Origin: an uncultured Acidobacteriota bacterium | GTDB lineage: Bacteria; Acidobacteriota; UBA6911 | Assembly (NCBI GenBank): GCA_963827655.1 | Contig: CAWHCF010000035.1 | Span: 1 to 64,000 of the forward strand | DNA: 64,000 nucleotides | Direction of reading: 5' to 3' | Shown: positions 9,603 through 44,505 of the stretch, in pieces | Numbering within the stretch: the first letter of the stretch is position 1 | How the letters are laid out: each line of letters starts with the position of its first letter | Translations under genes and position numbers: made by a program | Notes under the pieces: model-generated | What the model saw: the letters and a program-made list of their open reading frames with translations, nothing else | Database searches by the model: none | Told to the model about the DNA's origin: nothing

Positions 9603-10311
9603 CTTCTCTCTCCTTTTCTGTGAACGAGTTCGTCTTTTCCACCCTATCATTGCGTTCTGAGCGCTCCGGTTCCAAAGAACGATTTATTAACAGACCTAAT
9701 GCGTTGCTGAAAACCGCCCCCTGATCCCAGAAGCTTGCGCAATCCGTCTTTGAACAGCTGTCCCAATCGGGTCAGAAGATAAGTCTTTTATCCGTGACTT
9801 CGTTGCATTTTACGAAGAAATATTATGCAGCGATTGTGGAATAAGCCATGGGCAAATCGTGATCGCGAAGGTAGAGGGCGGCATTATCAACGTACCGCAA
9901 TCATCACTCCTGACACGCGGGCACAGCGGGAGCCAGCGGGGAAGGCAAAGTCTTCCGAGTCGATCCCCGCGCCCACCCTTGTCACACGCCGGCCAGTCGC
10001 GATCCGCCCAGATACCGAAGTTCCGTAGAGTTCGGCAAGCAGCGGGCGGGCGTTGGCCTTCAGAGAAATTTTCTCAGCGAGGCTGCTTTTCGTGGCGTCA
10101 GAGAATGTCCTTCTTGTACTCTTTAGCTTAGTTCGGCCGGTCAGTTTCCCGGTTCGGAGTCTGCCCTTTGCGGCCTAGCAACATTTGATGACGGAAGCAC
10201 CGGGAGTTGTGAGAGTAATGGCGATTTATCGCCAGTTGTCCAAAAATTGGGTCGAGATTCTATGCACAAAGGCTGGAACGCGGCTTGCCCCGTTTATCCG
10301 GCGCTTGGGTA

Positions 10312-12480
10312 TTATTCAGACGAATCCGTGAAATCCTTGAGTCCAACCTTACGCAGACCCTGTAAAAGCTGTTCCACAATCGACGTGTCCGCGAACCATT
10401 TTTCAGCATCTTCGCGGTAGTATTTCAGGTCGAGATATAGCGGTTGGTGCTTACGCACCAATTCGATGGCCGCGCGCGCCATTTCTTGGTGATTGAGCTG
10501 GCCACAGGCCGCGGCAATCCCCATTTGCGGCCAAGGGTCCTCGGGCATATTGATTTTCTTTACGACTTGTAACGCTGCTTGGTATTCGCCTTTGCGATAG
10601 TGATTGTAGAAATAAGGCAGATAACACCAGTCAGGGTAATGAGGGTTGAGTGCCATGGCACGCTGCACGAGGGCTAGGCCGCGCTCCCATTCGCCGGAGA
10701 AAGCGATCAGCAAACCCAAATACGCTCGAGTGTGGCTGTTGCGGGGATTGAGCGCCATCGCGCGCTCGGCGGCGTCACCAAACGCGGTATAGTCCTTTGC
10801 AAAGAAGTGCGCCTCAGCAAGCTGTTGCCATCCCAACTGACAGGCGGGATCGATGGTTACGGCACGCCAGGCAGCTTCGAGAGCGCGCTCCATTGGTCTT
10901 TCCAACGGATTTAGACGGTGCACATATTCCCAGCAGAATAGGTTGGAAAGGCACGCCCAGGCGTCTGCATGGTTGGGTTGGCGGTCGAGTACGCGCTCGA
11001 AGGCCGCACGGAGCCTGGCGTGCTCCTCAGCTTTGAGTTGCAAGACGTATGTGAACCACCGCGATACTAATTGCGATGCGCTCGCCTCTTCCAAGGGTTT
11101 TTCCCGGGTGGCAGTCGCCATGGTGCGGGCGATTACGCCGTGCCCACCCGCGACCGTCGCTACAATTCGGTCCGTCACATCGTCCAGGGTTTCAAATGGA
11201 CCGCCCGCACCGAGTTCGCGGTTGTAAGTCTCAGCCCAAAGCTGGACTCCGCTCGCGGCGTCCACGAGTTGCGCGTTGATGCGAAGAGCGCGTCCCCCTT
11301 TGCGAATGCTCCCTTCGACCACGTAGCGTGCGCCCAGTTCGCGGCCGACGGCACGAATATCTGTCGATCGGCTTTTGTAGGTCATCGCGGAGTTGTAGGC
11401 CACGACCCGGAGATACGGAAAGCGCGAGAGCGCGGCCGTTACGTCTTCGGTTAGCCCGTCCGCGAGCGATTCCAATTCCTTGTCGGACGCGGTGACCTTG
11501 AACGGTAAGACAGCAACCCAGAGCCCTTCTTCAGCGCGAGCGGCTTCCGCATCAGTAGTAGGGACGCCCCGTGGAGGGGAAGAGACTTGCCCCGTACCGA
11601 CGCTACGTTTGTACGCCAGCAAATCTGCGCGGATGCCTGCTGTGCTTTGATAGCGAAGATTGCGATCTTTCTGGAGTGCCAAGTTTACGATGCGTTCGAG
11701 TTCTAAGCCATCATACTCAACTAGGTGACGCAAAGGTTCTGGTGCACGGTTCAGGATTGCTTCCGCGACGACGCCGCTAGTGGCTCCTTTGAACGCCAAC
11801 TGACCAGTCGCCATTTCATAAAGAACTAGGCCAAACGAGAAGATGTCGGTTCGGGCATCCAAAACTTCTCCACGCACTTGCTCGGGTGACATGTAAGCCT
11901 TTGTGCCCATCACGACGCCAGGCATGGTGAGTTCGATTTCCGTTGGTCCACCAGTAGCATCGGCCGTTACCGTGACCTCATCGACCGGCTTCGGATTCAA
12001 TTTGGCCAGACCGAAATCCAAAATCTTGGCGTGGCCACGCTTAGTAACGAAAATATTCGCAGGCTTGATGTCGCGGTGCACGATTCCGAGCTGGTGTGCG
12101 GCATCCAAACCATCGGCGATCTCGGCACCCAAGTCCAAGACCTGCGCCAAAGAGAGCGGACCCCTGGCGATGCAGTCCTTCAACATGTGTCCGTCCAAAA
12201 ACTCCATGGCGATGAAGGGCCGGCTGTTTTCCTCGCCGATGTCGTAGATGGTGCAGATGTTCGGATGATTTAGAGCCGAAGCCGCCTCGGCTTCTCGGCG
12301 AAACCGTTCTAAGGCCGCCGGATCATGGGCTAACGCACCAGAGAGAAACTTAAGCGCCACCAAGCGGCGCAACCGGATGTCCTCCGCCTTGTGCACCACG
12401 CCCATGCCACCCCTGCCCAATTTCTCAAGGATGCGGTAGTGCGAAATCGTAACCCCGAGGAGCGCGTCAGGTCCTGCCAT
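10312..12480 (-). CDS. Hanks-type Ser/Thr kinase with TolB-like and TPR domains
   Basis: [33 protein letters not shown]; VAVLPF...YVVEGSIR; TPR-like C-terminus. Confidence 0.95.
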
Positions 12481-12575
12481 ATTTCAGCCAGCTATTTCCC
12501 TTGACAGCTCTGCCCGGCCTGTTCCGCCACCATGTACGCGGCGTACCAGTCGGGCCGATTCTTGTAGTGTTTGAT

Positions 12576-12971
12576 TTAGTTCGCCGGCACTAATATGGGA
12601 GCGCCTTTGTCTTTCACGAAGAACACGACGAGTTTAGCCGGTTTGGTTTGGCTCGCGTTCCGCCCAACGACGTGAACATCAGAGGGACCTTCATAGAAGG
12701 TCTGACCGGGTGTCAGAGTCACTTCCTTCCCGCCCCTCACCTGCATCACGACCGAGCCTTCCAGCACATAAATGAACCCATGTGCATTGTGGCGATGTAC
12801 TGGATCCGTGTTGCCCGGCGGATACTCCACGGTGATCATCACACCTTCCTTGCCAGGAAACTCCGTCAGGTCTTTCGACAGCAGCGGCGTCACCTTCGCC
12901 TCTTTAGTCTCCTGCGGGATGGACACAAGACATACCAGCATCACGACCAGTTTTGTAATCGTCATAAGCAA
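12576..12971 (-). CDS. Cupin-domain protein (paralog of 5537..5929)
   Basis: Near-identical HRHNAHGFIYVLEGSVVMQV...LTPGQTFYEG. Confidence 0.9.
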   Translation of the reverse strand: MLMTITKLVVMLVCLVSIPQETKEAKVTPLLSKDLTEFPGKEGVMITVEYPPGNTDPVHRHNAHGFIYVLEGSVVMQVRGGKEVTLTPGQTFYEGPSDVHVVGRNASQTKPAKLVVFFVKDKGAPILVPAN

Positions 12972-13067
12972 ACCTTTCGTTTGAACGGGACCACTAAGAT
13001 TTCATTGCTTATATGAGTCAGCTTCAGTTACGCGTAGCAGCCCAACCGGTCTCTGTTTACAACTCCA

Positions 13068-13838
13068 CTAGTGAGCGGCTGCCTCCATTTTCGCTGCGGG
13101 CTGAGTGAGCCAGGTTTCGAAACGCGTTTCGCCAAGTCGCGCACCCTTGCCGGGGACTAGCGTTCGCTCATCGACCTGCACGCCGGAGTATCGCGCGTTC
13201 GGGTCGGTGATGACCTCCCGAGGGTCATTGAGCTGGGCCAAGCGCCGGCGTATCAGTTCATCCAGGCGAAACGGTTCCGGCCCTGCAATTTCGACCGTGC
13301 CATTCACCGGCGCTTCTACTGCGACTCTGCCCACGGCACTCGCCACATCGTCGGCCGCCATCGGCTGGAAAGGCATGGGCGGCAAATGCACCTTGCCGCC
13401 CTTCATGGAAATGTCGGCAATGCCCTTGAGGAATTCAAAGAACTGCGTCGCCTGGACGATGGAGTAAGGAATCGTTGAATTCTTGATCAGCTTCTCCTGC
13501 GCGATCTTCGCGCGGAAATAGCCGCTTTCGTACAGCCGTTCAGTGCCGACCACCGATAATGCGACGAAGTGCTTTACGCCTGCGGCCGCGCCGTACTTGA
13601 GGAGATTGCGGGTCGACGTTTCAAAGAAACTTAGTGCCGCCGAATCTTCCCAAGAGGGAGAGTTCGATACGTCGACGACCACCGAAGCACCTTCCAGAAC
13701 TTCGGCCAGTCCCTCGCCCGTGAGGGTGTTTACGCCGGATTTGGGGGATGCTGCGATTGCTTCGTGGCCGTGCTCGCGCAACTTGGGTACGAGCTTTGAC
13801 CCGATGAATCCACTGCCACCGATCACTACGATTTTCAT
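13068..13838 (-). CDS. NmrA-like/atypical SDR (paralog of 6088..7203, no Rieske domain)
   Basis: MKIVVIGGSGFIGSKLV, GYFRAKIAQEKLIK. GAGG RBS before ATG at 13838. Confidence 0.9.
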   Translation of the reverse strand: MKIVVIGGSGFIGSKLVPKLREHGHEAIAASPKSGVNTLTGEGLAEVLEGASVVVDVSNSPSWEDSAALSFFETSTRNLLKYGAAAGVKHFVALSVVGTERLYESGYFRAKIAQEKLIKNSTIPYSIVQATQFFEFLKGIADISMKGGKVHLPPMPFQPMAADDVASAVGRVAVEAPVNGTVEIAGPEPFRLDELIRRRLAQLNDPREVITDPNARYSGVQVDERTLVPGKGARLGETRFETWLTQPAAKMEAAAH

Positions 13839-14157
13839 GGTTGCCACCTCTGTTTTCCATGTACCTCCCTTCGTGTCTTCTGTCAAGCGAACAAATACGA
13901 TACGAACAAATACGATTCCTTAAAGTCCTGGTAAGTCCGCTAACCGGACAAGTGCCCTCGCTGGTCGGAAACGTGGTTGCGCGAAGCGAAATACAAGGCT
14001 CTGGATGTATTGTCGGCTAACCGGACACGATCCCGGTACACATCGCGGTCGACTTCCGGTCATTCGCTCGCGATGGGGTGAGGCTCTCGGTTTTCCACCA
14101 CTTTCTGGTAACGCGTATCCCATCTCATTCGCGTCTGCCACAGACCGCGGCATAGTC

Positions 14158-14405
14158 TCAGCGTTTAAATTTGCGCGGAACCACGGAGTTCCCTTGGAGA
14201 ATCTCGTCCCAGTCCAGCGACCTGCCGCCCGGCGGACGCGTACAGCATCGCAAGCGCCGATCCTCCTGCTTGAAATAATCCGGGTCGAGATAGATGTTCG
14301 GATCGACAGGCGATTGTGTCAACGTCTCTGGCGGCCCGAGGTAGAGGATCGCATCGGCGTCCTCTCCGGATGCCATGCTGATCAGTCCGTGGATCAGTTC
14401 GGCTA
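14158..14405 (-). pseudogene. C-terminal fragment of an uncharacterised protein
   Basis: DADAILYLGPPETLTQSPVDPNIYLDPDYF reads as protein-like. The 5' part is replaced by IS91-like DNA. Confidence 0.4.
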
Positions 14406-14484
14406 CTGAAGCAACCCCGGAGGCATTGCTGTGACTGGCGTCGCCTTCATTCTCTCGATCTGCTCTGGGTGGATAAGCGCCCGG

Positions 14485-14635
14485 GAGTGCGGCGTGCCGG
14501 GTGGACGCACCGGCAGCGTCACCGTGATGCAGCGCGCAGGCAGCGGGTGAACGTGAACCTGCACTCTCACACCCTCGCGCTGGACGGGGTGTCTCACCGA
14601 AGACCCCGGCGGCGCGCTGGCGTTTCATCCGACCG
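14485..14635 (+). mobile_element. IS91-family transposase internal fragment (HUH motif region)
   Basis: GRTGSVTVMQRAGSG followed, after a frameshift, by NVNLHSHTLALDGV. Matches the family pattern G-x-V-T-x-I-Q-R-F-G-S...N-x-H-x-H...DGV. Confidence 0.75.
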
Positions 14636-14695
14636 GGGCCGCTTTGCGACCCCGGTCTGGTGCGGCGCCTGGTTCGGCCCTAACCCAACAAGCGG

Positions 14696-15607
14696 TCAGT
14701 GCTCCCAGTCGGCCGGTACAAAACGAAAGACGTTGCCGGCGACCGCCACCCGGCCGACGGACGGGAACGACAGGTGAGCGGCCGCCAGCGGCTCGCCGGT
14801 CGCCGCCAGCTCCCGCAAGAGACGGACCCGGACGCGGACCGCCTCCTCGGGGTCGTGGTCGAAAGCGTTGTACCAGTCGGGGCGGTCGAAATGGTCCGGG
14901 AACACGGCATCGCCGAGGAACGTCAGCCGGTCGCCGCCGGACGCCAGCCGGACCACGCTGTGCCCGGGGGTGTGGCCGCCGGCGCGATAGACGACCACCC
15001 CCGGCGCCACCTCGTGCTCCGCCTCGAACAGCCGCAGCTGGCTGCGGTACTTGTCCACGAACCGCTCTTCGGCCGACCGAAGCACGTCCGGCATCCCCGC
15101 AAAAGAGTTGCGGGAGAAATCGGGCGACGCCCAGAACTCGACCTCGGCGGCCGCCAGGTGGATCGGCACGTCCGGACGCAGCCGGCCCCTCAGCCCGTCG
15201 GCGAGCAGCCCGCCAACGTGGTCCACGTGCATGTGGGTAATCACCACGTCGGTCACGGATGCGGGATCGATGCCGGCGGCGTCCAGTCGCATGGCCAACC
15301 GCCCGACCTGCGGGAAGTTCGGGAACTCCGCCCCTACCCCAGCGTCGATGAGTACGGTCCGGCCGCCGCTACGCACCACGACCACGTTCAGCGGCCACTT
15401 GTACACGTCCGGCGGCTGGAGCCTGTCGTCCAGCCAGGCCGCCAGTTCGGCCGGGTCGGCATTGGTGGCCAACGTCGTGGCTGGCAGCGGAAACACCCCA
15501 TCGCTGATCACCAGCACGTCAATCTCGCCGACCCGCAGCGCGTAGCGCGACGGAACCAACTCGTCGGTCCCCGGTCTAACGGGGTGTGAGGTCTTGTCCA
15601 AGCTCAT
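14696..15607 (-). CDS. MBL-fold metallo-hydrolase (methyl-parathion hydrolase/AHL-lactonase-like)
   Basis: THMHVDHVGG, GHTPGH, GDA, AHLSFP. AGGAGA RBS before ATG at 15607. Confidence 0.92.
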   Translation of the reverse strand: MSLDKTSHPVRPGTDELVPSRYALRVGEIDVLVISDGVFPLPATTLATNADPAELAAWLDDRLQPPDVYKWPLNVVVVRSGGRTVLIDAGVGAEFPNFPQVGRLAMRLDAAGIDPASVTDVVITHMHVDHVGGLLADGLRGRLRPDVPIHLAAAEVEFWASPDFSRNSFAGMPDVLRSAEERFVDKYRSQLRLFEAEHEVAPGVVVYRAGGHTPGHSVVRLASGGDRLTFLGDAVFPDHFDRPDWYNAFDHDPEEAVRVRVRLLRELAATGEPLAAAHLSFPSVGRVAVAGNVFRFVPADWEH

Positions 15608-16517
15608 GGTTGTCTCCTTCTCCTGACCGCTGTTGGTGATCACGATATTCCTTCCGCTTCGCGGGAGGGGAGAGGCGCACCGCCTCGGCTTCGTCTGACC
15701 AGTCCGTAGCTCTCGGGCACCGACGGTGCCGAGCACAGCGCGTTGACGTGAGCGGCAGACGGAGTCATAGAAGCCCTCCGGTCGAGCACACCCTTCCACG
15801 AGGGCAGCGACCTGTCAAGTGGGATAAGAGAAACAAGCGGCCGTGGACGGCTCGGGGTTGCCGACCCGGGAGACGTTTCCAATGCACGGGCGTATAATCC
15901 GCAGAGTCGGACTCATCCAGGACCGAGGAACATCGCGCAAAGTTAACATAAAGAAGACTTCGTCAAGGCCGTTCGCGCGACCGAGAAAACGGCACTGGCC
16001 CAGCGCGGCTGGCGGGTGCTTCTGCTCACCCCCGGAGCGCTCGAGGACTCCTTCTACCGAATCCAGGATGGGTTCGAGCACGATCGATCCACGGATCTCC
16101 TCTGGGGCTTGGAGGAGGGTGGATTCCTCCATGCATTGCTGGCCACCGAGGAGCGGCCCTCAGTGGTGCGGCTTCAACCGGGGATCCAGGTGGTCCTTCC
16201 CTGCCACCGCCTGGGACTCTACGGCCCGGGTCCCGACTGGGAACGGGAGCTTCGGCGGGAATTTTCGACACCTCCGCGCGAAGGCGCTGACGGTCTCCTT
16301 GTTCTGCTCTGGCGTGGGCATGCACGCCTCCTCACTCTCGGCGCCGGCACTTAGCGCGGGCACCCGAGCGTACCCGGGTGCCGAACGACGCGTCCAAGTC
16401 GGCGCTGCCACACTCGGGCACCACGGCAGGTCCCTCATGCTCGGCGGACGTTGACGCCGCTCGTCGAGGTTTGGGCTGGCGTTGCCAGCGGGTCGGTCAG
16501 CCCGGCTTGCTTGCTGG

Positions 16518-33150: not shown

Positions 33151-35675
33151 TCAGGGGGATCTACCGTCGCTCGGAACCTGCGTGGGCTTTTCTTCTTCTT
33201 TGTTCTTGCCTGCCATGAATCCGAAAATACGGCGCAGCAGACTCTTTCGGTTTCCTTCGCCGGAGGATATTTCCGTCAGCCCCTGGCCGCCATGCAGCGA
33301 GCAGGGTTCTGTGGGCTCGGTTCCGCTCACGAAGACCTCATCGTACTGATCGGGACATGAGCCAGTGGAAAGCTGCTGAGTCTGCGGATCGATCGCAACA
33401 CTGGCAATCCCTTCCGGAGCCGCAAAGGGCTTCGCGTCGCGAAATCCCGGAACCAGGACGGCACGCTTCATGAATTCCGTCCAGATAGGCGCCGCGGATG
33501 CAGCTCCGGAGAGTCCGAGTTGCCGGTTATCGTCGAAACCGATCCAGGTAACGCAGAGCAGGTTCGAGGTGTAGCCGGCGAACCATCCGTCATGGGATGT
33601 TCCCGTCTTCCCAGCCGCGGGGGCCCTGAAGCCGCGGGAGCGCACTCCTGCGCCAGTGCCTCGGTTGATCACATCCTCGAGGAGATTTGTCACCAGGTAC
33701 GCCACCCTTTTGTCGAGAACGGCCCGCGCACTGGGGCGCGGATTCCTCGAGGAGAAGACCCGGTGGGACCCACGAGCTTGTAGATAGACATGGGTTCGGT
33801 TCGAGTTCCCCCCGTGGCAAAAACCGTGTAACCGGCGGCGACTTCGAGCGGAGTCATTTCATAAGCGCCCAGCGCCATGGCCGGTGTCGGCTGAATACTA
33901 GGGTCCAGTCCCAGCCCTCGCGCCATCTGCACCACGCGCCGGAAGCCGACCATCTCAGCGACTTTCACGGTCGCGACATTCAATGAGCGAGTCAACGCAT
34001 CGCGGATCGTGACGTTACCGTAGAAGTCCTGGCCGTAGTTGTCCGGGGTGTACTCCTCGCCGTTGAAAAAGAAAGTCGTCGGCTCATCCACCACGGTCGT
34101 TGCCGGCGTAATCAGAGGCTGGCTGCCATCGGCGCCGCTGGCCAGAGCTGCGGCGTAGACGAAGGGTTTGAATACCGAGCCGGGCTGGCGTCGCGCCAGA
34201 ACGTGGTTGAGCTGGCTCTTGCCGTAATCGCGGCCGCCGACCAGGGCTTTGATTGCGCCCGTTCGCGGATCCAGCGCGACGAAGGCCACCTGAGGAAGCG
34301 GGACGTCCTCACCTTTTTTCCGCAAGCGCGCATTGCGTTTCGCGAGCTGGGCGTCCACGTTTTTCATGCCGGCTTCGACGGCGTCGACGGCCGCTCGTTG
34401 CAGAGCTGCGTCCAGCGTGACGTAGATGCGGTGACTCTCGGAATTGAGTTGCTCTTCCGAGAATCGGTCAAGCAGCTCATCTTTGACCATATCTACGAAG
34501 TAGCCGGAGAGGTTGGTTCCCAATCTCGCGTTTACCAGGCGCATGGGATTCTTCTTTGCCGCTTCCGCCACTTCGGGCTTTATCGCCTGGCTTTCGACCA
34601 TTATCGCCAGGACTCGGTCTCGCGCCTCGATCGCCCGCTCCGGTCTTCGTTCCACTGAAGAGTAGCGGTTCGGCGCGCGAATGATCCCTGCCAGAAAAGC
34701 CGCTTCGCCCAGATTCAGTTCACGGATGTCCTTTCCCAAATAGGCTTGCGAGCCTTCGCCGAATCCGTGGATGGCGAAACTCCCGCGATTGCCCAGATAG
34801 ATCTGATTGGCGTAGAGTTCGAAGATCTCCTGTTTGGTGAATCGATGCTCGAGCAGCAAGGCCATGTAGGTCTCGGCCAGTTTGCGGCCCCACTCCCGGC
34901 GTGTGGTAAAGAAGAAACTGCGCGCCACCTGCATGGTTATGGTGCTGGCCCCCTGCGCTTTTGAGCCGCGCCGAACGTCGGCCCAGGCCGCTCCGAAGAT
35001 GCGGATAGGATCGAACCCTGGGTGATCGAAAAACCTCTTGTCTTCGGCTGCGAGGACCGACTTGACCAGGACGTCCGGTAAATCAGAAAAGCGCACCAGC
35101 CGGCGCTTTTCGCGCGAGCGGTCGAAAAGGTTGGTCAGGAGTTCGGGCTCGATCTCAGCCACGGAGAGCACGGATTTTGTCTCCAGTGAGCGGATGCGCG
35201 AGATCCTGGGACCGCTGAACTCGACCCGCAAGGAGTTGCGTCCTCCGAAGTAGGAGTGGGGCGAGGGATAAATCTCGATTGCCCCGCCGGATGGACGGAA
35301 AATCCCGGGCGCATCGGGAGCCGCGGATTCCCCATAACCGGCGGCCTGGAGGAAACTCCGGAGCTGGGCGGGCGACATTACCTCTCCGACTGCGATCCGT
35401 CGCGGCGCCGTGAAGATACGCGAGGTAGTCTGATAGAGATAGCCTCCCTCGATCTCGTCGATCATCCGTGAAAAGCGGACGTAATAGTAGGTAAGCACGC
35501 CGAGAGGGATGACGACAGCCAGACAGGCTCCCACCACCAGGATCCGCCCGCGGCGCGAGGACCAGAGTTTCGCGAGCTCAGCCCACGTTGAAATTGCAAG
35601 TCCCCGCACGAAGCGGATCGCCAACGAAATCTTTGAAGGGGAATTGTCTGGATCGATGTCTGGAGGTTTATTCAC
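33151..35675 (-). CDS. Class A penicillin-binding protein (PBP1b-like), frameshifts near 33700-33760
   Basis: EDKRFFDH, GASTITMQ, RKLAE; RQPGSVFKP, SLN, AGKTGT. Confidence 0.93.
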
Positions 35676-36910: not shown

Positions 36911-39900
36911 GTGCGCCCGATCAAGGCTCGCCGGGTGATTCCCGTCGCGGTTTCACTCTTCGTCGTCAGTGCCACTCTCTACGCCGCGTCGTTCCGCGGC
37001 CCCGAGCTTTCGCCCCAGCAGCAAAAGACGTTGCGCGACAACTTCGCGCTCTGTGTGAGCAAGCTCAAAGGACCGTATACCGAGAACGTCTGCGTGTGCC
37101 CTGACGGGCGTAAGATTCCCGTCCGGGGCGCGAGCGGGCAGGTCGGAATCGGCTGCAAGAACGCCGTCTTCTGCGCCGCGTACCGCGCGCCGTGGGCCGA
37201 AGCGCTGGCGAAGCAAGGCGTGTACATCGGCAACATCTTCTCGCGCGATCTCTACCTCTGGGATACATTTCCCGACCACAACAACCTGGTGCGCGGATAC
37301 ATCCTGGAGAACTACTTCGTCGAGACCAACCCGCGCCACAAGCTCAGCCAGCTGCGGGCCTTCGGCGGCCTCTCCGGCGCCGAATACGAAGTCGCCGCGT
37401 CCCCGCGCTTCTTCGAGCGCTATCTGGCCGCTCCCGAGTTCAGCGAGACACGCCATTTCCTTCTCGCCTACGAGCTGCAGAAGCGCTTCTTCGTTCGCGA
37501 AGATGTGGGTCAGATCCAGAAGGTCCGCGTCCTGGCCGTGCGCATTCACGCGGCCGATCCCAAGTTCAAGCCGCTGCGCGATGCGGTCCACAACCAGATC
37601 TCCGCCGGCCTTCTCCCCAAGCTCGAGGCCTACCGGAACGGCTTGCCGCAGGGTGCGGCGCGCACGCAGACGGACGAGTTGATCGCCGAGATCCTCAAGC
37701 TGACCGCGGTCGACGGGCGCGCGCTGCAGAGTCAGGTGGCCGAAATCCAGGACGCCGCGGTGCGCGCCGAACTCAGCGCGCTGCTGCCACAGACCGCCGA
37801 CCCGGTTGATGCCATGGTCTCCTTGGGCCGGTTCATGGCGCTGGCGCGCCAGCGCGTTGCTGCACGCAAATTGTCCGGCGCAGACTCGCGTCGCCTCATC
37901 GACCTCGTCATCACGGCCGCGACGGATGTGCAGCGACGCGGGAGCGCGCTGGTGGAAAGCCGCACGCCGCTCAGCGCAAAGCGGAACCTGCAGCTGCTCG
38001 GCGCGCTGACCGACGCCACGTACGGCGTCGGCTTGCTTGGCAGGCGCGAGTGCGATGCCGCCGGCACGGCCCTGCGCGAGCTTGCTTGCCGCGCCCAGCC
38101 AGTCACGCACGGCCTTTACCGACAAACTGAAGGAGGCACGAGCGCGTCATGGAGTGGGCGCAGGCCAACGCCATGCTCCCCTTTGCCGAGGTGCTGCCGG
38201 CCTGGGAGCTGGTGCTGCCGCAGACGGCCGGCATCCGCGACGACATCCTGCGCGGCTCGCCGCTTCTGCTCTACGCCCAGGTATCGCGCAACCTGGACGA
38301 CTTCGCGCAGGGCAGGCAGCGCATCCGCCACAACCTGTTCGGCGCCGAGGTCGATACCGGCCTGCGCGCCCTCAACCCGGGTCTGGCAATGGGACGGCTG
38401 CGCGTGGCGCCCAAGGCGGGCGGCTTCACGCGCGAAGAGATCGTCGTCTTGTCGGAAACGCCCGCCGACCTCGACCCTGCCGCCGGCATTCTCACTCAGG
38501 GTGAGGGCAACATGCTGTCGCACGTGCAGCTCCTGGCGCGCGCGCTCGGCATCCCGAACGTCGTACTCGGGCCGGACGCCTACGCCAAGATCAAGCCGCA
38601 CGACGGACAGCAGGTCTTCTTTATCGCGACGCCGGGTGGACGAGTGATTCTCAAGGAAGCCGCGGCGATGACGGCTACGGACCGCGCCGTGTACGAGGAG
38701 TACACGCGTAACGAGGCGCGCGCCGCGGACGGCAGCCTGACGGGCGGCAGACCGCGGCTGCATATCGACCGCGCCAAGGTCGACCTGAGCAAGACGATGC
38801 CGATCGATCTGAGACAGGTGCGCCGCAAGGACTCGGGCCGCTTCTGCGGCCCCAAGGCGGCCTATCTCGGCGAACTGAAGCACGTCTTTCCCGATCGCGT
38901 CTCGCGCGGCCTGGTGATCCCGTTCGGCGCCTACTACACGCACTACCAGAGCACTAAGGTCGCCGTGCCCGACAAGCTCCGCGCCCTGAACCTGGCGACG
39001 CCAGGCGAGCCGCTGCCGGCCTTCGTCGAGCGAACCTACAAGCAGTTCTTCGGCGGGATGGTAGCGGCCAAGACCGGCGAGCAGGAGCTGTCCGCCTGGA
39101 TCATGCCGCGCCTCGACATCATCCGCCACTCCATCCGCCAGGCGCCGCTTTCGGCCGAGCTGAAGACGGCGATTCACAAAGGACTCGAAGCGAACGGGCT
39201 GATGACCGGCGCGGACCAGACGCTCCGGCTGCTTCGTGCGCAGCGACACCAACGTCGAGGATCTCGACAACTTCAACGGCGCCGGACTCAACCTGACTCT
39301 ATTCAACATGAAGTCGCTCAACGACATCTACGAGGGCCTGAAGGAGGTCTGGGCCTCGCCGTTCCAGTTCCGCTCCTTCTCCTGGCGCCAGACGCTGATC
39401 GACGACCCGCTGTGGGTGCTGGCCTCGGTCGTCATCCTCGAGTCGGTTCCGAACGACAAGTCGGGCGTCCTGGTGACGGCGGATCCCAACTCGGGAAGTC
39501 CGGACCGGATGCTGGTGGCGACGTCGGAAGGTATCGGCGGCGCCGTGGACGGGACCTCCGCCGAGACGCTGGTGTGGTCGCCCAAGCGCGTCGAACTGAT
39601 CACTCTGTTCAAATCGCCCTGGCGGAACCAGCTCCTGCCCGGCGGCGGCAGCGCGATCGTCCCGGCGTCCGGGACTGACACGGTGCTGGCTCCCGCCGAT
39701 CTGCAGGCGATCATCGACGCCGGCCAGAAGATCAGCAAGAATTTCCAGCCTGTGAAGGATCCCGCCGGAAAGCCGCGGCCCTGGGACATCGAGTTCGGAT
39801 TTGCCGCCGGCAAGCTGTGGCTGTTTCAGTGCCGACCGTTTCTCGGCAACGACCAGCTCAAGAACGTCCCCGCCCTCGCGCCACTGGAATGGAAGACCAG

Positions 39901-39946
39901 CGCGAAAGGCAGTGACATGCTCTCGCTCGAGGAGAGGATCGGATGA
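36911..39946 (+). CDS. Exported PEP-synthase/dikinase-like protein of about 1000 aa, with the His-swivel domain before the ATP-grasp domain; frameshifts near 38090, 38140 and 39225
   Basis: GTG after AAGGAAG; signal-like N-terminus; GILTQGEGNMLSHVQLLARALGIPNV; GPKAAYLGEL; VRSDTNVEDL..FNGAGL; SGVLVTADP; WDIEFG...LFQCRP. Confidence 0.8.
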
Positions 39947-39980
39947 ACTCGATATCTTTCTTGTCATGGAGGGTGACAGA

Positions 39981-41683
39981 ATGGACAGGCCGGCAGGCGC
40001 TCTGCGGCACGTCCTTTGCTCGCGTTGCTCATCTGCCTGCTGGCGTGGACCACGCCCGCGCCATCCATCGCCATCGCGGCGCCGCAAGCGGCCGAGAAAG
40101 CCTGGGACGGGAGCGCGCCGCCGCAGGGCATCTACTTTCACTGGTACGAGCCGTCTTTCTACACGGGCTTTGCGCCGGGTTCGCAGGATCCGAGCCGCGT
40201 CCACATAGAGCTGTCGCGCGGCAACCAGGTCCGCTTCACGCTCGTGCTGGGCGACGCCGAGCTGGACCACTACCTCGACGATCTCGCGGCGCGCCGCACG
40301 ATCTACCAGGAGCTGATCGACGCCAAGGTAATCGAGCTCACGACCAACAAGGAGTACGAGCGCTTCATCGAGGCGCTCGACCGCGCCCGCGTAGCCGACG
40401 CGCGAGCGAACCGGACCGGTTCGGGCCCGGAGGGCTACCGGCAAAAGAGCGTCGAGATCATGAGCCTGCTCAATCCAGGCCGCATCTTCCGCATACGAAT
40501 CAGGCTCGATCGCGTGCTCGCCGCCTGGCATGCGCAGCTCGCTGCAGCCGACCTGGCCTCGGACGCCGGCCGGCTCGACGCTGCTAATGCCATCCTGCCC
40601 GGGCGCGTGGACCTCTACGAGTTGAAGCCGGAGCTTGTCTCGGCGCTCGGCAAGGCCGCGGAGACAGCGCGGGCCGGCAAGGCGGACGACCCGGCGTTCC
40701 GCGACCAGGCCCTGGCCTTCCTCGACAAGGCCACGCAGGGACGCTACCGCGTGCGCGACGGCTTCGTCGACGCGATAGAGTTCACCGCCATCTACCCGGC
40801 CGGCACGATCGCGGCCACGACCAGTTACAAGGGCGAGACTCTGCCCCAGTTCGGGGTCACCGGGGTCTGGCCACTCATCGCGCGCACGCAGGGGCGCGGG
40901 CTCGTCGGCATGGTCGACTACATCTCGTCCAATCCCGGCTACGGCTTCATAACAATGTTGCCCTACCAGCACGCCGGCGGCATCGAGTACAACGCCTTCC
41001 ACAACGCCGGCGTGCGGTGTGCCCTCGATTCGACGCCGTTCCTCCCGTCGGAGTGGCGGAAAGCGGTGAGCTCGCGCGACGGCAAGAAGCCATATCAGAA
41101 CCTCTGGATCGCCAGCCGCGGGCCTGCCTCGCACGGCTGCACGCGGCTCGGCTCCGGCCATATGACCGAGCTGCGCAACAGCTTGCCGTCCAGCTCGAAG
41201 GCGCTGGAGCAAGTGGATACGTTCCGCAACCTGGTGCAGTGTTACGACGTGTTCGACGTCGACGGCAGCGGCTCGCCCCGGGTGATGGGGGTACAGTACT
41301 ATCTGGCCTTCAAGGACAGCGGCCACACACCGGTCGCTGCCCATGTGACCAACAAGCGCGAACCCTTCTACAAATGGCTCTACGGCAACAACGTCGAGCT
41401 CGCGCCGGTCGGCCAGGCCAAGCTGAAAGAAGTGCCCACCTGCTGCTTCGTCGGCAAGAAGAAGGCCCGGGAGGCGCAGGTCTATAAGAACCTGCCCCTC
41501 TACGAAGCCGAATGGGCCGCGGAGTCTATTCAGTTCTACAGGCTCAAGCCGGCTCCCTTCGACAGCGCCAAGGGGTACGAGTTCAACCGTGAGCTGCGCA
41601 AGGTGGGAGTGGGGCACACCACCGATCGAAGCAAATTGTTCCTGAAGGGGACAGGCTACTCAACTCCCGATTTCGTGAAATAG
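39981..41683 (+). CDS. Exported uncharacterised protein with an L,D-transpeptidase-like SHGCTRL motif (frameshift near 40015)
   Basis: GGAGG RBS, hydrophobic leader, 555-aa ORF, FHN...RGPASHGCTRL at 41129-41149. Confidence 0.7.
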
Positions 41684-41711: not shown

Positions 41712-42383
41712 ATGCCACGGTGTGCTCGTGTTGTCATTCCTGGTTGCCCGCACCACGTCACCCAGCGCGGCAACCGCCGCCAGAATGTCTTCTTTTCCGA
41801 TTTGGATCGGACTGTGTATATCTCACTGCTGCGCAAGTACTTTGTCCTTTCTCATCTTCATTTGGCAGGCTACACTTTGATGACCAACCACGTCCACCAC
41901 ATTGCCATACCCGAATTTGCCACCTCCTTGGCCAAAGGATTCCGTCTCCTTCATCAGGATTTCTCCCGATGGCAAAACATCCAGCAAAACGTCACAGGTC
42001 ATTTATGGCAGAACCGCTACTTCTCCTGCCCCCTCGATGAAGACCACTTTTGGAAGGCGCTACGGTACGTCGAACTCAATCCAGTTCGTGCCGGGCTGGT
42101 AAGAGATGCATGGGAATGGCCGTGGTCAAGCGCTAGAGCACACATCACCGGAGTTGACGATTCGGGTCTGCTCGATATGGAATTGTGGAGGTCGCGCTTC
42201 GACGGAAACAGTTGGAAGGAGTTTCTGAAAGAAGATCTCGTCGCATCCGAAACAGACCTCATCCGGATCGCGACGAGCACTGGCCGTCCGTTGGGGACCG
42301 ACGACTTCGTTCGCCAACTCGAAAAACTCACAGGCAGGTCGCTGCGCCCACAAAAGCCGGGTCCGAAATCCGGGGCTCTCTAG
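41712..42383 (+). CDS. REP-associated tyrosine transposase (RAYT, Y1 HUH)
   Basis: PHHVTQRGNRRQ, LMTNHVH, HLWQNRY, RYVELNPVRAG, WPWSS. Confidence 0.92.
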   Translation: MPRCARVVIPGCPHHVTQRGNRRQNVFFSDLDRTVYISLLRKYFVLSHLHLAGYTLMTNHVHHIAIPEFATSLAKGFRLLHQDFSRWQNIQQNVTGHLWQNRYFSCPLDEDHFWKALRYVELNPVRAGLVRDAWEWPWSSARAHITGVDDSGLLDMELWRSRFDGNSWKEFLKEDLVASETDLIRIATSTGRPLGTDDFVRQLEKLTGRSLRPQKPGPKSGAL

Positions 42384-42866: not shown

Positions 42867-44505
42867 TCACTTTCCACCTGCCAGTTCACCCAAGAGTTTT
42901 CGCAGCAGCGGGGAGTCCGGACTGAATTCAAGGGCTTTCAGCAGCACTGCCCGCGCCTGTGTCGTATCGCCACGGTTCAAGTGCGCAATAGCGATATTGA
43001 TCCTCGCCTCTTCCAGGGCCGGGTTGCGCGAGAGCGCGTCCTGCCAAAGGTGAATCGCCTCGGCCATCCGGCCTCGCGCCCCATAGTGGTTTGCCAGATT
43101 CACGGCCGCCACCACCAGCGCCGGATTGAGCCGGAGCGCGCGCTCGTAAAGAGCTATGGCTTTATCGCGCTCGCCCGCGCGATCGTACAGGTGACCCAGA
43201 CGGTAGAAAACCTCGCTATCCGCCGATCCTTTCCTTGTAGCCTGCTCGAGCCGTTCAATAGCCTGGGCGCCTGAGGACTTACTTTCAGTACTGAGCGCCA
43301 ATTCCGCATGGGCAAGACCCACTTCCCTTTCTGTCGCGGCAGCTCCACGGAATGGAACGAGTAGAGTCGCGCTTTCAGATCTGGCTTGCGTGATTCGGGG
43401 CCTGGCAATGGTATGGTCCGTCAATACGCCGTGACCGCCGTCCACGACCCGGTTCCTGGGCATGTGGCAGGAAGCGCAGTCGTCTCCGTTCGCTCGCCGC
43501 AGCTCGACCTTCGTTTTGCAATTATTCGTCTGATGACATGTGAGGCACTTTTCCCGGAAGTAATGAACGCGCTCTGCTTCGCCGGGAAGAGAGTGAGGAT
43601 CATGGCAACTTCCACACCAGAGCCGGTCCCCGCTGGCTTTCTTGCATCGGCTCTGCCAGAGTTTTTCCACGTGGCTGGTCGCCTTGAGAGCCTGCGTCTG
43701 GACGTCAGCCGGAACGAAGGAGATAACAAAGTCGGCAAGAAGATCGCCGGGTCGAAAGCGCAGCGAGCGAGCGTCCCGCCCGGGCGATGCGAGCCTCGCC
43801 TGTGAGATGGCACTGTTCGCATATGCTGTCGCGGCGCAGCGGGTCGAGTTTTACCGGGTTTACGATTTCAGTCACGCCCGAGGCCCGCGCGAGACTCATC
43901 TTTTCGATGTGCTTTCGGCCGGGTCCATGACAGCGCTCGCAGCCAATCCCGCCTTGCAGAAAGGGGGGATCGGAAAAGCGGTTTTGTGTGCTATCGATCG
44001 CTTGAAGGTCACTGGCATGGCACTCCAGGCAGTTGGTCTCGATGGGGCGCGTGAGGTTGACGTGATCGTATCGATCGAATCCCGGCGACATGTCCCATTT
44101 CTTGAGCCGGGAATAGTAGGTGACCGGTAGCTGATAGAGAAAGCCGTCCAGCGCGAACAGATAACTGCGGCCGGCAGCGCCCGATCCAACGAAATAGTCG
44201 AGCCGCCGGCGGTCCCGAAGCTGACGCCCGGATGATTTTGAATTCGGCCGCTCGAATTCCAGAAAGTAGTCGTCAGCAGTCTTGCTGACTCGATATTGGA
44301 CGTCCGAACGCGGGTGAACGAATTTGCTCGATTCGAGATCCGCAGGAAGGGTTCCGCTTTGTACCGTCCCGCTCGAGAGCGCCATCGGAGTGGCGGAGTA
44401 ACTTCGAAAGATCCTGGAGTGGCAAGGGGCGCACGCGGAGTTCCCGACGTATCCCTCCGCGCGGGGCGAGACGAGGGCAAGCAGGAGGAGGGTCTTTTCG
44501 AACAT
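42867..44505 (-). CDS. Multiheme cytochrome c plus TPR protein (frameshifted near 43740-43770)
   Basis: Seven CxxCH motifs (CAPCH, CLECH, CERCH, CEQCH, CGSCH, CLTCH, CASCH) and C-terminal TPRs. Confidence 0.88.

Follow-up and report, generated by a model that had tools for sequence, protein, structure and literature searches.

The plastid glucan,water dikinase (GWD) and PWD combine a substrate-binding N-terminal region, a phospho-His domain and a C-terminal PPDK-type ATP-binding domain, and their acceptor is a polymer (available text of PMC13553574). Rifampin phosphotransferase (RPH) and the phosphoenolpyruvate (PEP) synthase/PPDK enzymes are cytoplasmic, place the ATP-grasp domain first and contain a rifampin (RIF)-binding domain or a PEP/pyruvate barrel. 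Related ATP-grasp and swivel-His machinery activates non-sugar substrates in the prodigiosin ligases PigC, RedH and HapC and in the aromatic-ketone dikinases HpeHI and MarK, which the available accounts describe as cytoplasmic small-molecule enzymes with other substrate domains and another order of parts. Here we analyze two co-oriented plus-strand genes that fill positions 36911..41683 of a 64,000-nucleotide window, the whole stretch of DNA studied (positions 1 to 64,000 of contig CAWHCF010000035.1, assembly GCA_963827655.1; uncultured Acidobacteriota bacterium, GTDB lineage Bacteria; Acidobacteriota; UBA6911). Gene 1 (36911..39946, about 1010 amino acids once its frames are joined) encodes an apparently exported dikinase-like protein, and gene 2 (40016..41683, 555 amino acids) an apparently exported protein of an unnamed family. 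On balance, and with moderate confidence, we read the region as a horizontally acquired copy of a widespread, uncharacterized two-gene module that acts outside the cytoplasmic membrane.

Domain architecture and predicted export signals of the dikinase-like protein

Gene 1 is broken into pieces by frameshifts, which are treated below. Its middle piece matches PEP-utilizers, PF00391 (Pfam, E 1.1e-5, 25.4 bits against a cut-off of 23.1), and the core of this phospho-His swivel domain lies at 38464..38595 on the plus strand, with the catalytic His in GNMLSHVQLLAR and the SH of that motif at 38518..38523. The last piece matches PPDK_N, PF01326 (Pfam, E 8.3e-21), as a C-terminal ATP-grasp domain (38809..39943, plus strand), and the protein terminates right behind it at the stop at 39946. 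Pfam returned no PEP-utilizers_C on gene 1, that is, no PEP/pyruvate-binding barrel, an absence shared with GWD and PWD. The first-pass annotation, made from the sequence alone, had recorded the swivel, the PEP-synthase-type ATP-grasp and the missing barrel together with five N-terminal cysteines and the SH dipeptide, and all of these are confirmed. It had also set the domain order against that of PEP synthase and RPH, in which the ATP-grasp comes first. The order found in gene 1 has a precedent, however: potato GWD1 has its catalytic His in the fourth domain and a C-terminal ATP-binding domain of PPDK/PEPS-like type (available text of PMC13553574). Set side by side by description only, gene 1 and the plastid enzymes share their order of parts; gene 1 differs in being bacterial and in carrying an export signal, whereas GWD works where ATP exists. 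The N-terminal part of GWD/PWD carries starch-binding CBM45 or CBM20 modules, whereas that of gene 1 has no CBM45, CBM20 or other Pfam domain and is mainly helical in its model.

The cytoplasmic, ATP-grasp-first layout of RPH and PEP synthase/PPDK sets these enzymes apart from gene 1, although their ATP-grasp is homologous and the swivel-His motif is shared; the prodigiosin-ligase and aromatic-ketone dikinase types likewise differ from it in location, substrate domains and order. NCBIfam gave far-sub-threshold ATP-grasp matches only: PEP synthase models reached at most 96 bits against cut-offs of 598–1063 (e.g., 96 vs 883), the RPH model NF041857 reached 51.4 bits against 999 with only the ATP-grasp aligned, and prodigiosin-ligase-type matches (PigC/RedH) reached 62 bits against 1300–1350. 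Among PDB chains, the ATP-grasp matched 8a8e (E 3.3e-15) and 5fbs (E 8.2e-10). In the numbering of the intact homolog P0001, every one of the 20 aligned homologs has the swivel His, H537, in line with the earlier expectation that homologs keep it; K648, R776 and E960 likewise do not vary in this alignment, and T795 hardly does. HMMER alignment to PDB chains placed R776, T795 and E960 opposite Arg117, Thr136 and Glu297 of Listeria RPH (RPH-Lm), K648 opposite the GGK lysine K23 of PEP synthase 8a8e, which corresponds to the Lys22 position of RPH and PPDK, and H537 opposite the catalytic-His motif of both PEP synthase and RPH. The RPH-Lm residues in question are assigned to the ATP phosphates and Mg2+ (available text of PMC4844700). 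Because the His and the mapped ATP-site residues are conserved, the machinery of the ATP-to-His half-reaction looks intact in the gene 1 sequence.

The N-terminal region (36992..38350, plus strand) comprises a Cys-rich beta unit followed by about 20 helices. Cysteines occupy residues 48, 61, 63, 82 and 88, of which C61, C63, C82 and C88 are conserved, and the first 405 amino acids match no Pfam family (E <= 0.01). An AlphaFold model of the homologous region built with 36 sequences (predicted local distance difference test, pLDDT, 88.6; predicted template modeling score, pTM, 0.88) displays a small beta unit that holds the conserved cysteines, with about 20 helices after it. Comparison of this model with the PDB by Foldseek gave 0 matches at E <= 0.001 (best 0.14), and the best VIA-align scores, Z 8.5 for a designed helical cage and 8.0 for YicC, fall in the generic helical range; in the ESM Atlas the sole match (0.82) was an unnamed cluster. 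The region may be a new domain, and we presume it to be the acceptor-binding part.

Both products begin with signal-like leaders, as had been noted in the first pass. The predicted Sec signal peptide of gene 1 (36911..36991, plus strand, 27 amino acids, ...LYAAS / FRGPEL) has the leader VRPIKARRVIPVAVSLFVVSATLYAAS, followed by the conserved mature start FRGPEL; that of gene 2 lies at 40016..40078 on the plus strand (...SIAIA / APQAAEK). Homologs with leaders of at least 15 amino acids were scored by a custom heuristic (not SignalP) that required a 10-residue window whose Kyte-Doolittle mean is 1.8 or more and, toward the end of the leader, a small-x-small site. All 103 scorable proteins among 110 full-length gene-1 homologs passed (seven were left unscored, six for short start calls and one without a match to the anchor motif), as did all 109 scorable proteins among the 120 gene-2 homologs taken. 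The leader sequences themselves are variable, with a positively charged n-region ahead of a hydrophobic core; A-x-A precedes the conserved mature starts F-R-x-P-E-L (gene 1) and A-L-x-A-x-D-T-x-W-D-G (gene 2), and gene-2 homolog leaders end in AFA or AL-x-A. Leaders are also present in relatives at 32–34% identity within the window's class, and the leader of a 21–22%-identical relative, encoded on a metagenome contig of low GC, is of the lipoprotein type (...FLIVSC). The host genome encodes LpxC and Omp85, and the host is therefore a diderm with a periplasm.

Distribution, pairing and probable horizontal acquisition

The middle piece of gene 1 matched 1593 proteins at E <= 0.001 among 7999 scored, and gene 2 matched 393 among 8000 at the same threshold; such numbers go far beyond chance. 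Among the 120 gene-1 matches listed, most are about 1010 amino acids long, 64–97% identical and annotated at most as PEP/pyruvate-binding or hypothetical, and none of the 120 gene-2 matches listed bears a Pfam domain or a meaningful name. A gene-2 profile run against 1.84 billion representatives retrieved only 314 clusters, of which many are fragments and one is a third branch of about 600–630 amino acids. No publication on an exported dikinase, or on gene 1 and gene 2 as a pair, turned up in literature searches. Both protein families, together with the dikinase N-terminal region, are without a name, a Pfam model or a solved relative.

We surveyed gene-2 loci at one genome per species, which yielded 52 loci from Binatia, Myxococcota, Desulfobulbaceae and other Thermodesulfobacteriota, Gammaproteobacteria, Hyphomicrobiales and Holophagae, with a single isolate among them, Microbaculum sp. 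FT89 (L039). In 33 of the 39 loci with at least 3.1 kb of upstream DNA, gene 2 is immediately preceded by gene 1 in the same orientation; gene 1 is upstream but fragmented in L054 and L055, and in L047 it lies 7–10 kb off on the opposite strand. The 13 loci with less upstream DNA comprise seven with a partial gene 1 running up to the contig end and six that are uninformative. A distant gene-2 branch (27–31% identity) was sought in metagenome contigs and gave 54 loci, among which L101 and L102 appear to be duplicate entries of a single sequence. A gene-1 relative is adjacent in 19 of the 22 distant-branch loci of at least 5 kb, as a 53–59% identical gene 1 upstream in 10 and as a 21–28% identical gene-1-like protein downstream in 9; two of the three loci without one have only about 1.2 kb of DNA downstream. 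One such distant relative carries a C-terminal PPDK_N domain, a PLSHV His motif and GxK, RSSxxxED and DIEF...QARP motifs. That the pairing is kept at such divergence and with swapped gene order argues for a functional couple, and the co-occurrence of the two genes proposed in the first pass is borne out in both surveys.

The pair stands out from its surroundings. At 0.66, the GC content of 36911..41683 exceeds that of its two flanks (0.597 and 0.594), and GC at third codon positions (GC3) is 0.85–0.87 for the pair against 0.70–0.71 for the neighboring genes. An IS200-like (Y1) transposase gene (41712..42383, plus strand; PF01797, E 1e-8) follows directly downstream and marks the border of this GC-rich insert. 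Among 101 sampled genomes of the class, a set that includes one flagged as unpublished (G022), the pair is the sole close copy; gene-1 relatives occur in four of these genomes and gene 2 in one. Given the contrast in GC and GC3, the adjacent transposase and the single close copy in the class, the pair looks horizontally acquired here.

Elsewhere the pair often travels with other genes. A gene-2 paralog (34–39% identity, SHGCTH motif) lies 3' of gene 2 in 29 of the 44 loci with enough downstream DNA; the window's genome lacks this paralog. A class-A-beta-lactamase-like gene (PF13354, E 1.9e-15) is found in 25 of the 52 loci, on the opposite strand and upstream of gene 1 in 23 of these, which agrees with the earlier suggestion that the pair keeps company with cell-wall-type enzymes; its product scores 16.8 bits against the 200 required by the NCBIfam class A model. 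Genome G002, which has no gene 2, carries two beta-lactamase-like genes 3' of a 32%-identical gene-1 relative, and the window's genome has a copy elsewhere (C8:87466..88470). The window itself contains no paralog, no beta-lactamase-like gene and no TLC-type gene.

These neighbors bear on an alternative that we consider quite unlikely, in which gene 1 is a periplasmic kinase of antibiotics or xenobiotics resembling RPH, its N-terminal region binds the drug or toxin, and the beta-lactamase-like and Cys enzymes add to detoxification within a resistance island. The His-swivel and ATP-grasp machinery is indeed common to RPH, the beta-lactamase-like gene recurs in 25 of 52 loci, and the distribution is patchy and suggestive of horizontal transfer, with a transposase next door. 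Yet gene 1 has no RIF-binding domain and reaches 51 bits against 999 on the RPH model, the N-terminal region matches no known ligand-binding fold, and the beta-lactamase-like protein falls far below the class A cut-off; tight conservation across many phyla (60–97% identity) better suits a housekeeping envelope role.

Gene 2 and its YkuD-like loop

Gene 2 carries SRGPASHGCTRL. Its SHGCTRL motif (41129..41149, plus strand; Cys375), reported in the first pass and present, aligns to the (S/T)HGC(I/V)R loop of canonical YkuD domains, and a candidate catalytic His, His329, stands in FHNAG (41000..41002, plus strand). His329 is invariant in 57 of 57 family members, including paralogs and the distant branch (FHNAG or GIHNP). 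Cys375 is nearly invariant: the Cys loop is retained in 34 of 35 aligned members, paralogs included, and reads S-x-G-C-(V/I)-R-M in the distant branch. Over its length the loop S-R-G-P-x-S-H-G-C-T-R-L-x-S-G-H-x-x-E-L parallels the canonical G-R-x-x-(S/T)-H-G-C-I-R-l-x-x-x-d-x-x-x-L. When 57 members were compared with 17 canonical YkuD domains, hhalign aligned 39 loop columns at 46% probability (E 2.1e-4); with 35 members the probability was 20%. Protein-language-model features, taken as a lead only, placed gene 2 nearest to YkuD clusters (score 0.84). YkuD was also the sole Pfam family matched repeatedly, weakly and in 11 of 57 members (best E 0.021), any other family being matched by at most two; the cut-off of YkuD, PF03734, was reached by 0 of the 57, and NCBIfam has no family for the gene-2 paralog or the distant branch.

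The protein is organized into a helical N-terminal half and a C-terminal half with the YkuD-like catalytic loop. An AlphaFold model built with 20 homologs has a mean pLDDT of 48.2 and is usable only over about residues 70–255, which are helical; residues 258–555 lie nearly all below pLDDT 50, and the C-terminal model is unreliable. VIA-align of the model against 48,161 chains gave nothing above Z 5.1, and the gene-2 profile found nothing below E 0.28 among PDB sequences. Like the L,D-transpeptidases (YkuD/ErfK, PF03734), gene 2 appears to be exported, has the S-R-G-x-x-S-H-G-C-T-R-L loop and following helix aligned to G-R-x-x-(S/T)-H-G-C-I-R-l, and keeps an upstream His in an h-H-N/G context; unlike them, it belongs to a family of proteins 550–630 amino acids long, with a large helical N-terminal half and a long His–Cys insert. 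All of the evidence points, though weakly, toward an L,D-transpeptidase, and we class gene 2 as a YkuD-like cysteine enzyme of a new family and not as a PF03734 member. The earlier label "L,D-transpeptidase-like" is upheld for the catalytic-loop motif and fails for family membership.

The same two residues might be a phosphate acceptor. The swivel His of gene 1 would then pass its phosphate to the His or Cys of gene 2 in a His-to-Cys relay of the kind used by the phosphotransferase system (PTS), and the two proteins would form a signaling or regulated-enzyme couple instead of a pair of enzymes sharing a substrate. Strict adjacency and co-inheritance of the genes even at 21–31% identity would suit such a relay, as would an invariant His329 beside a nearly invariant Cys375; PTS enzymes share the same swivel domain (available text of PMC4844700). 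The Cys loop is nevertheless YkuD-like and not EIIB-like, and we consider a relay improbable.

Gene integrity, ATP supply and the proposed reaction

Gene 1 starts at a GTG (36911) preceded by an AAGGA-type ribosome site and is read in frames 2, 0, 1 and 2: frame 2 up to about 38081, a short frame 0 piece, LLAAPSQSRTAFTDKLKEA, up to about 38140, frame 1 up to about 39220, and then frame 2 again. This corresponds to three one-base insertions near 38081, 38140 and 39219–39221. P0001, a homolog of 97% identity, has an unbroken reading frame of 1010 amino acids. We aligned contigs from four soil or rhizosphere runs, mostly 95–99% alike, to the region. One base fewer is present at 38081 in contigs of three runs (X1, X2, X3), at 38140 in contigs of two (X1, X3) and at 39219 or 39221 in contigs of two (X2, X3). 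In the same assembly PBP1A (transglycosylase plus transpeptidase; minus strand, 33151..35675) is split by a frameshift near 33700, its open reading frame (ORF) 33690..35675 continuing in ORF 33151..33705, which holds the KTG-containing C-terminal part, and on contig C8 (80028..86284) rpoB and rpoC are broken into adjacent ORFs of 363, 363, 571 and 824 amino acids; indel errors seem to be spread through the assembly. Because near-identical soil contigs lack the three bases and because PBP1A, rpoB and rpoC are split too, the extra bases are probably assembly errors, and gene 1 is therefore probably intact in the organism. Programmed frameshifting was considered and rejected, since close relatives simply lack the three bases.

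The boundaries of gene 2 are less clear. The first pass had placed the two genes 34 bp apart, and although their common orientation stands, the spacing does not: the ATG at 39981 on which it was based is out of frame with the conserved gene-2 protein, and the first in-frame start past a TGA is a TTG at 40016, which leaves a gap of 69 bp. With ATG 39981 out of frame, the true start of gene 2 is uncertain. Its stop lies 11 codons beyond the end of all 19 aligned homologs (...LFLK), an extension spanning 41648..41683, and the local CCFVGKKKAREAQ departs from the family's CRFVGKKAxEAQ; the late stop and this departure may be further small assembly errors. A true pseudogene, decaying as the remnant of a transferred island, would also account for three frame-breaking insertions within 3 kb, for a gene 2 without its usual stop and with an unclear start, and for the absence of the usual partners (paralog, beta-lactamase-like gene, TLC-like genes) next to the pair. 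This we regard as unlikely: the remaining gene-1 protein is 91–99% identical to the intact homolog without additional stops, and essential genes (PBP1A, rpoB, rpoC) are split in this assembly as well.

The conserved pair invites a reaction scheme. The C-terminal ATP-grasp of gene 1 would split ATP, as judged by homology with PEP synthase, RPH and GWD, and would place the beta-phosphate on the swivel His (His537 in the intact homolog), from where the swivel domain would deliver it to an acceptor held by the family-specific N-terminal region. Gene 2 would be an exported cysteine enzyme with an L,D-transpeptidase-like catalytic loop, and both proteins would work on one envelope substrate, most likely peptidoglycan stem peptides or another periplasmic polymer. 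Phosphorylation would come first and would activate or mark this substrate for the Cys enzyme. The domains, the conservation of the catalytic residues, the export-type leaders and the pairing are direct observations; that the proteins are exported, what they act on and which reaction comes first are inferred. The first pass had named the envelope, an antibiotic or the partner protein as possible targets, and each could be the object of phosphotransfer. In its most far-reaching form the scheme amounts to ATP-driven periplasmic chemistry in some diderms: an exported dikinase, fed by adjacent TLC/NTT-type carriers or by another route, would phosphorylate or activate peptidoglycan or an envelope polymer, and new YkuD-like Cys enzymes would use the phospho-intermediate. 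We put this forward tentatively, as an unlikely proposal in its full extent; if true, it would provide a cross-linking or attachment reaction independent of the D-Ala leaving group.

The periplasm is taught to be free of ATP, and to our knowledge every phosphoryl or peptidyl transfer described there relies on a donor activated beforehand. A candidate supply is offered by the TLC-type genes near some gene-2 loci, which encode multi-pass membrane proteins, some with HEAT and cyclic-nucleotide (cNMP)-binding tails. By BLASTP (E down to 1e-109) these proteins share homology with proteins of other genomes that score above the Pfam cut-off for TLC, the ATP/ADP transporter family. Where a locus spans 12 kb or more, such genes are present within 10 kb of gene 2 in 18 of 33 cases. 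TLC/NTT-type carriers could supply ATP where they are adjacent, but not in this window: no TLC match lies on its contig, the genome's matches being on contigs C9, C22, C26, C41 and C48. Precedent for an ATP-dependent enzyme with a periplasmic targeting signal exists in Gram-negative bacteria (available text of 10.64898/2026.03.22.713542 and PMC10799422); that enzyme is unrelated to gene 1 in fold and chemistry as described there, and shows that the ATP paradox is not unique. Among side observations on such genes, a second gene-1-like paralog (27–28% identity) lies upstream of the main cluster, beside a TLC-like gene, in L013 (5..1780) and L020 (80..1735, minus strand).

Several points weigh against a module at work outside the cytoplasmic membrane. 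ATP-dependent periplasmic chemistry contradicts the textbook view, and nothing in the window supplies ATP. Export of both products is predicted from their leader sequences by a heuristic. From the N-terminal region of gene 1 nothing can be read about the substrate. TLC-type genes turn up within 10 kb of gene 2 at no more than 21 of the 52 loci, and at none of the 54 distant-branch loci; carriers of this type occur in 71 of the 101 class genomes against four with gene-1 relatives, and G002 (98% complete) has a gene-1 relative and no TLC match. From these counts the carrier link is a frequent neighborhood and not a rule, and TLC carriers were rejected as a genome-level marker of the dikinase (71 vs 4 of 101). 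The gammaproteobacterial loci L041, L045 and L046 have gene 2 and no gene 1 within 10 kb. On the side of gene 2, the window protein falls in no Pfam family (E <= 0.01) and in no NCBIfam family, and His329 stands 46 residues ahead of Cys375; the canonical YkuD His–Cys spacing is much shorter. As observations on the unpaired loci, the gene-2 motif of L045 (10001..11557) reads SSRGSTRL, its His and Cys being lost; L045 and L046 have a TLC-like gene upstream, and L045 an SDF-family gene.

The ATP paradox would vanish if the enzyme worked without free external ATP, its ATP-grasp binding pyrophosphate, polyphosphate or another nucleotide, or its reaction being reversed, and PPDK does work in the ATP-forming direction in bacteria and protozoa (available text of PMC5371819). 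All four mapped ATP-phosphate and Mg-site residues of gene 1 are conserved, however, and neither a PEP/pyruvate nor a phosphate-donor domain is present, so that a different donor or direction appears very improbable. Least probable of all, the leaders might be no export signals, or membrane anchors that leave the bulk of the proteins in a cytoplasm where ATP use is easily accommodated; the charged n-region, hydrophobic core and A-x-A just ahead of the conserved mature start, the lipobox in one branch and the exported types among the neighbors (the beta-lactamase-like protein with its leader, the DsbA-like protein in L118) speak against it.

Overall, what had been observed in the first pass is confirmed and its interpretation is partly supported, as a conserved, apparently exported pair of a dikinase and a Cys enzyme. 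The difficulty over ATP is a real one. The family as a whole keeps all mapped ATP-site residues intact, has an export signal in all scorable members and is tied to a Cys enzyme across deep divergence, so that this conserved pair opens the question of periplasmic ATP to direct testing. Activity outside the membrane would point to an envelope modification and a means of energy supply that are both new; should the enzyme prove not to act there, it would mark a case in which reasoning from signal peptides breaks down. The isolate Microbaculum sp. FT89 (L039), which carries the pair, makes experiments possible.

Further features were noted around the pair and its relatives. Beyond the transposase, two ORFs on the minus strand (42867..44505) have several CxxCH haem-binding motifs, one of them being TPR-like too, and bear no relation to the pair as far as seen. 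On the flanks of the pair in the alphaproteobacterial isolate L039 (4587..6662, 11582..14982), and likewise in L034, a proteobacterial metagenome-assembled genome, lie genes for an M13 peptidase, for an NMT1_3 binding protein and for an SDF transporter to which an SBP_bac_3 domain is fused. In L118 a distant gene-2 relative is followed by a DsbA-like thioredoxin (9822..10517) and, farther away, by a TraG/TraC-type conjugation ATPase (13396..15990), with no dikinase. In L117 an exported protein of 683 amino acids without a Pfam family (12881..14932) lies 3' of the distant dikinase and contains about ten repeats of G-x-V-x(5)-G-x-x-Q-Y-x-K-x-x-Y-S-Y.

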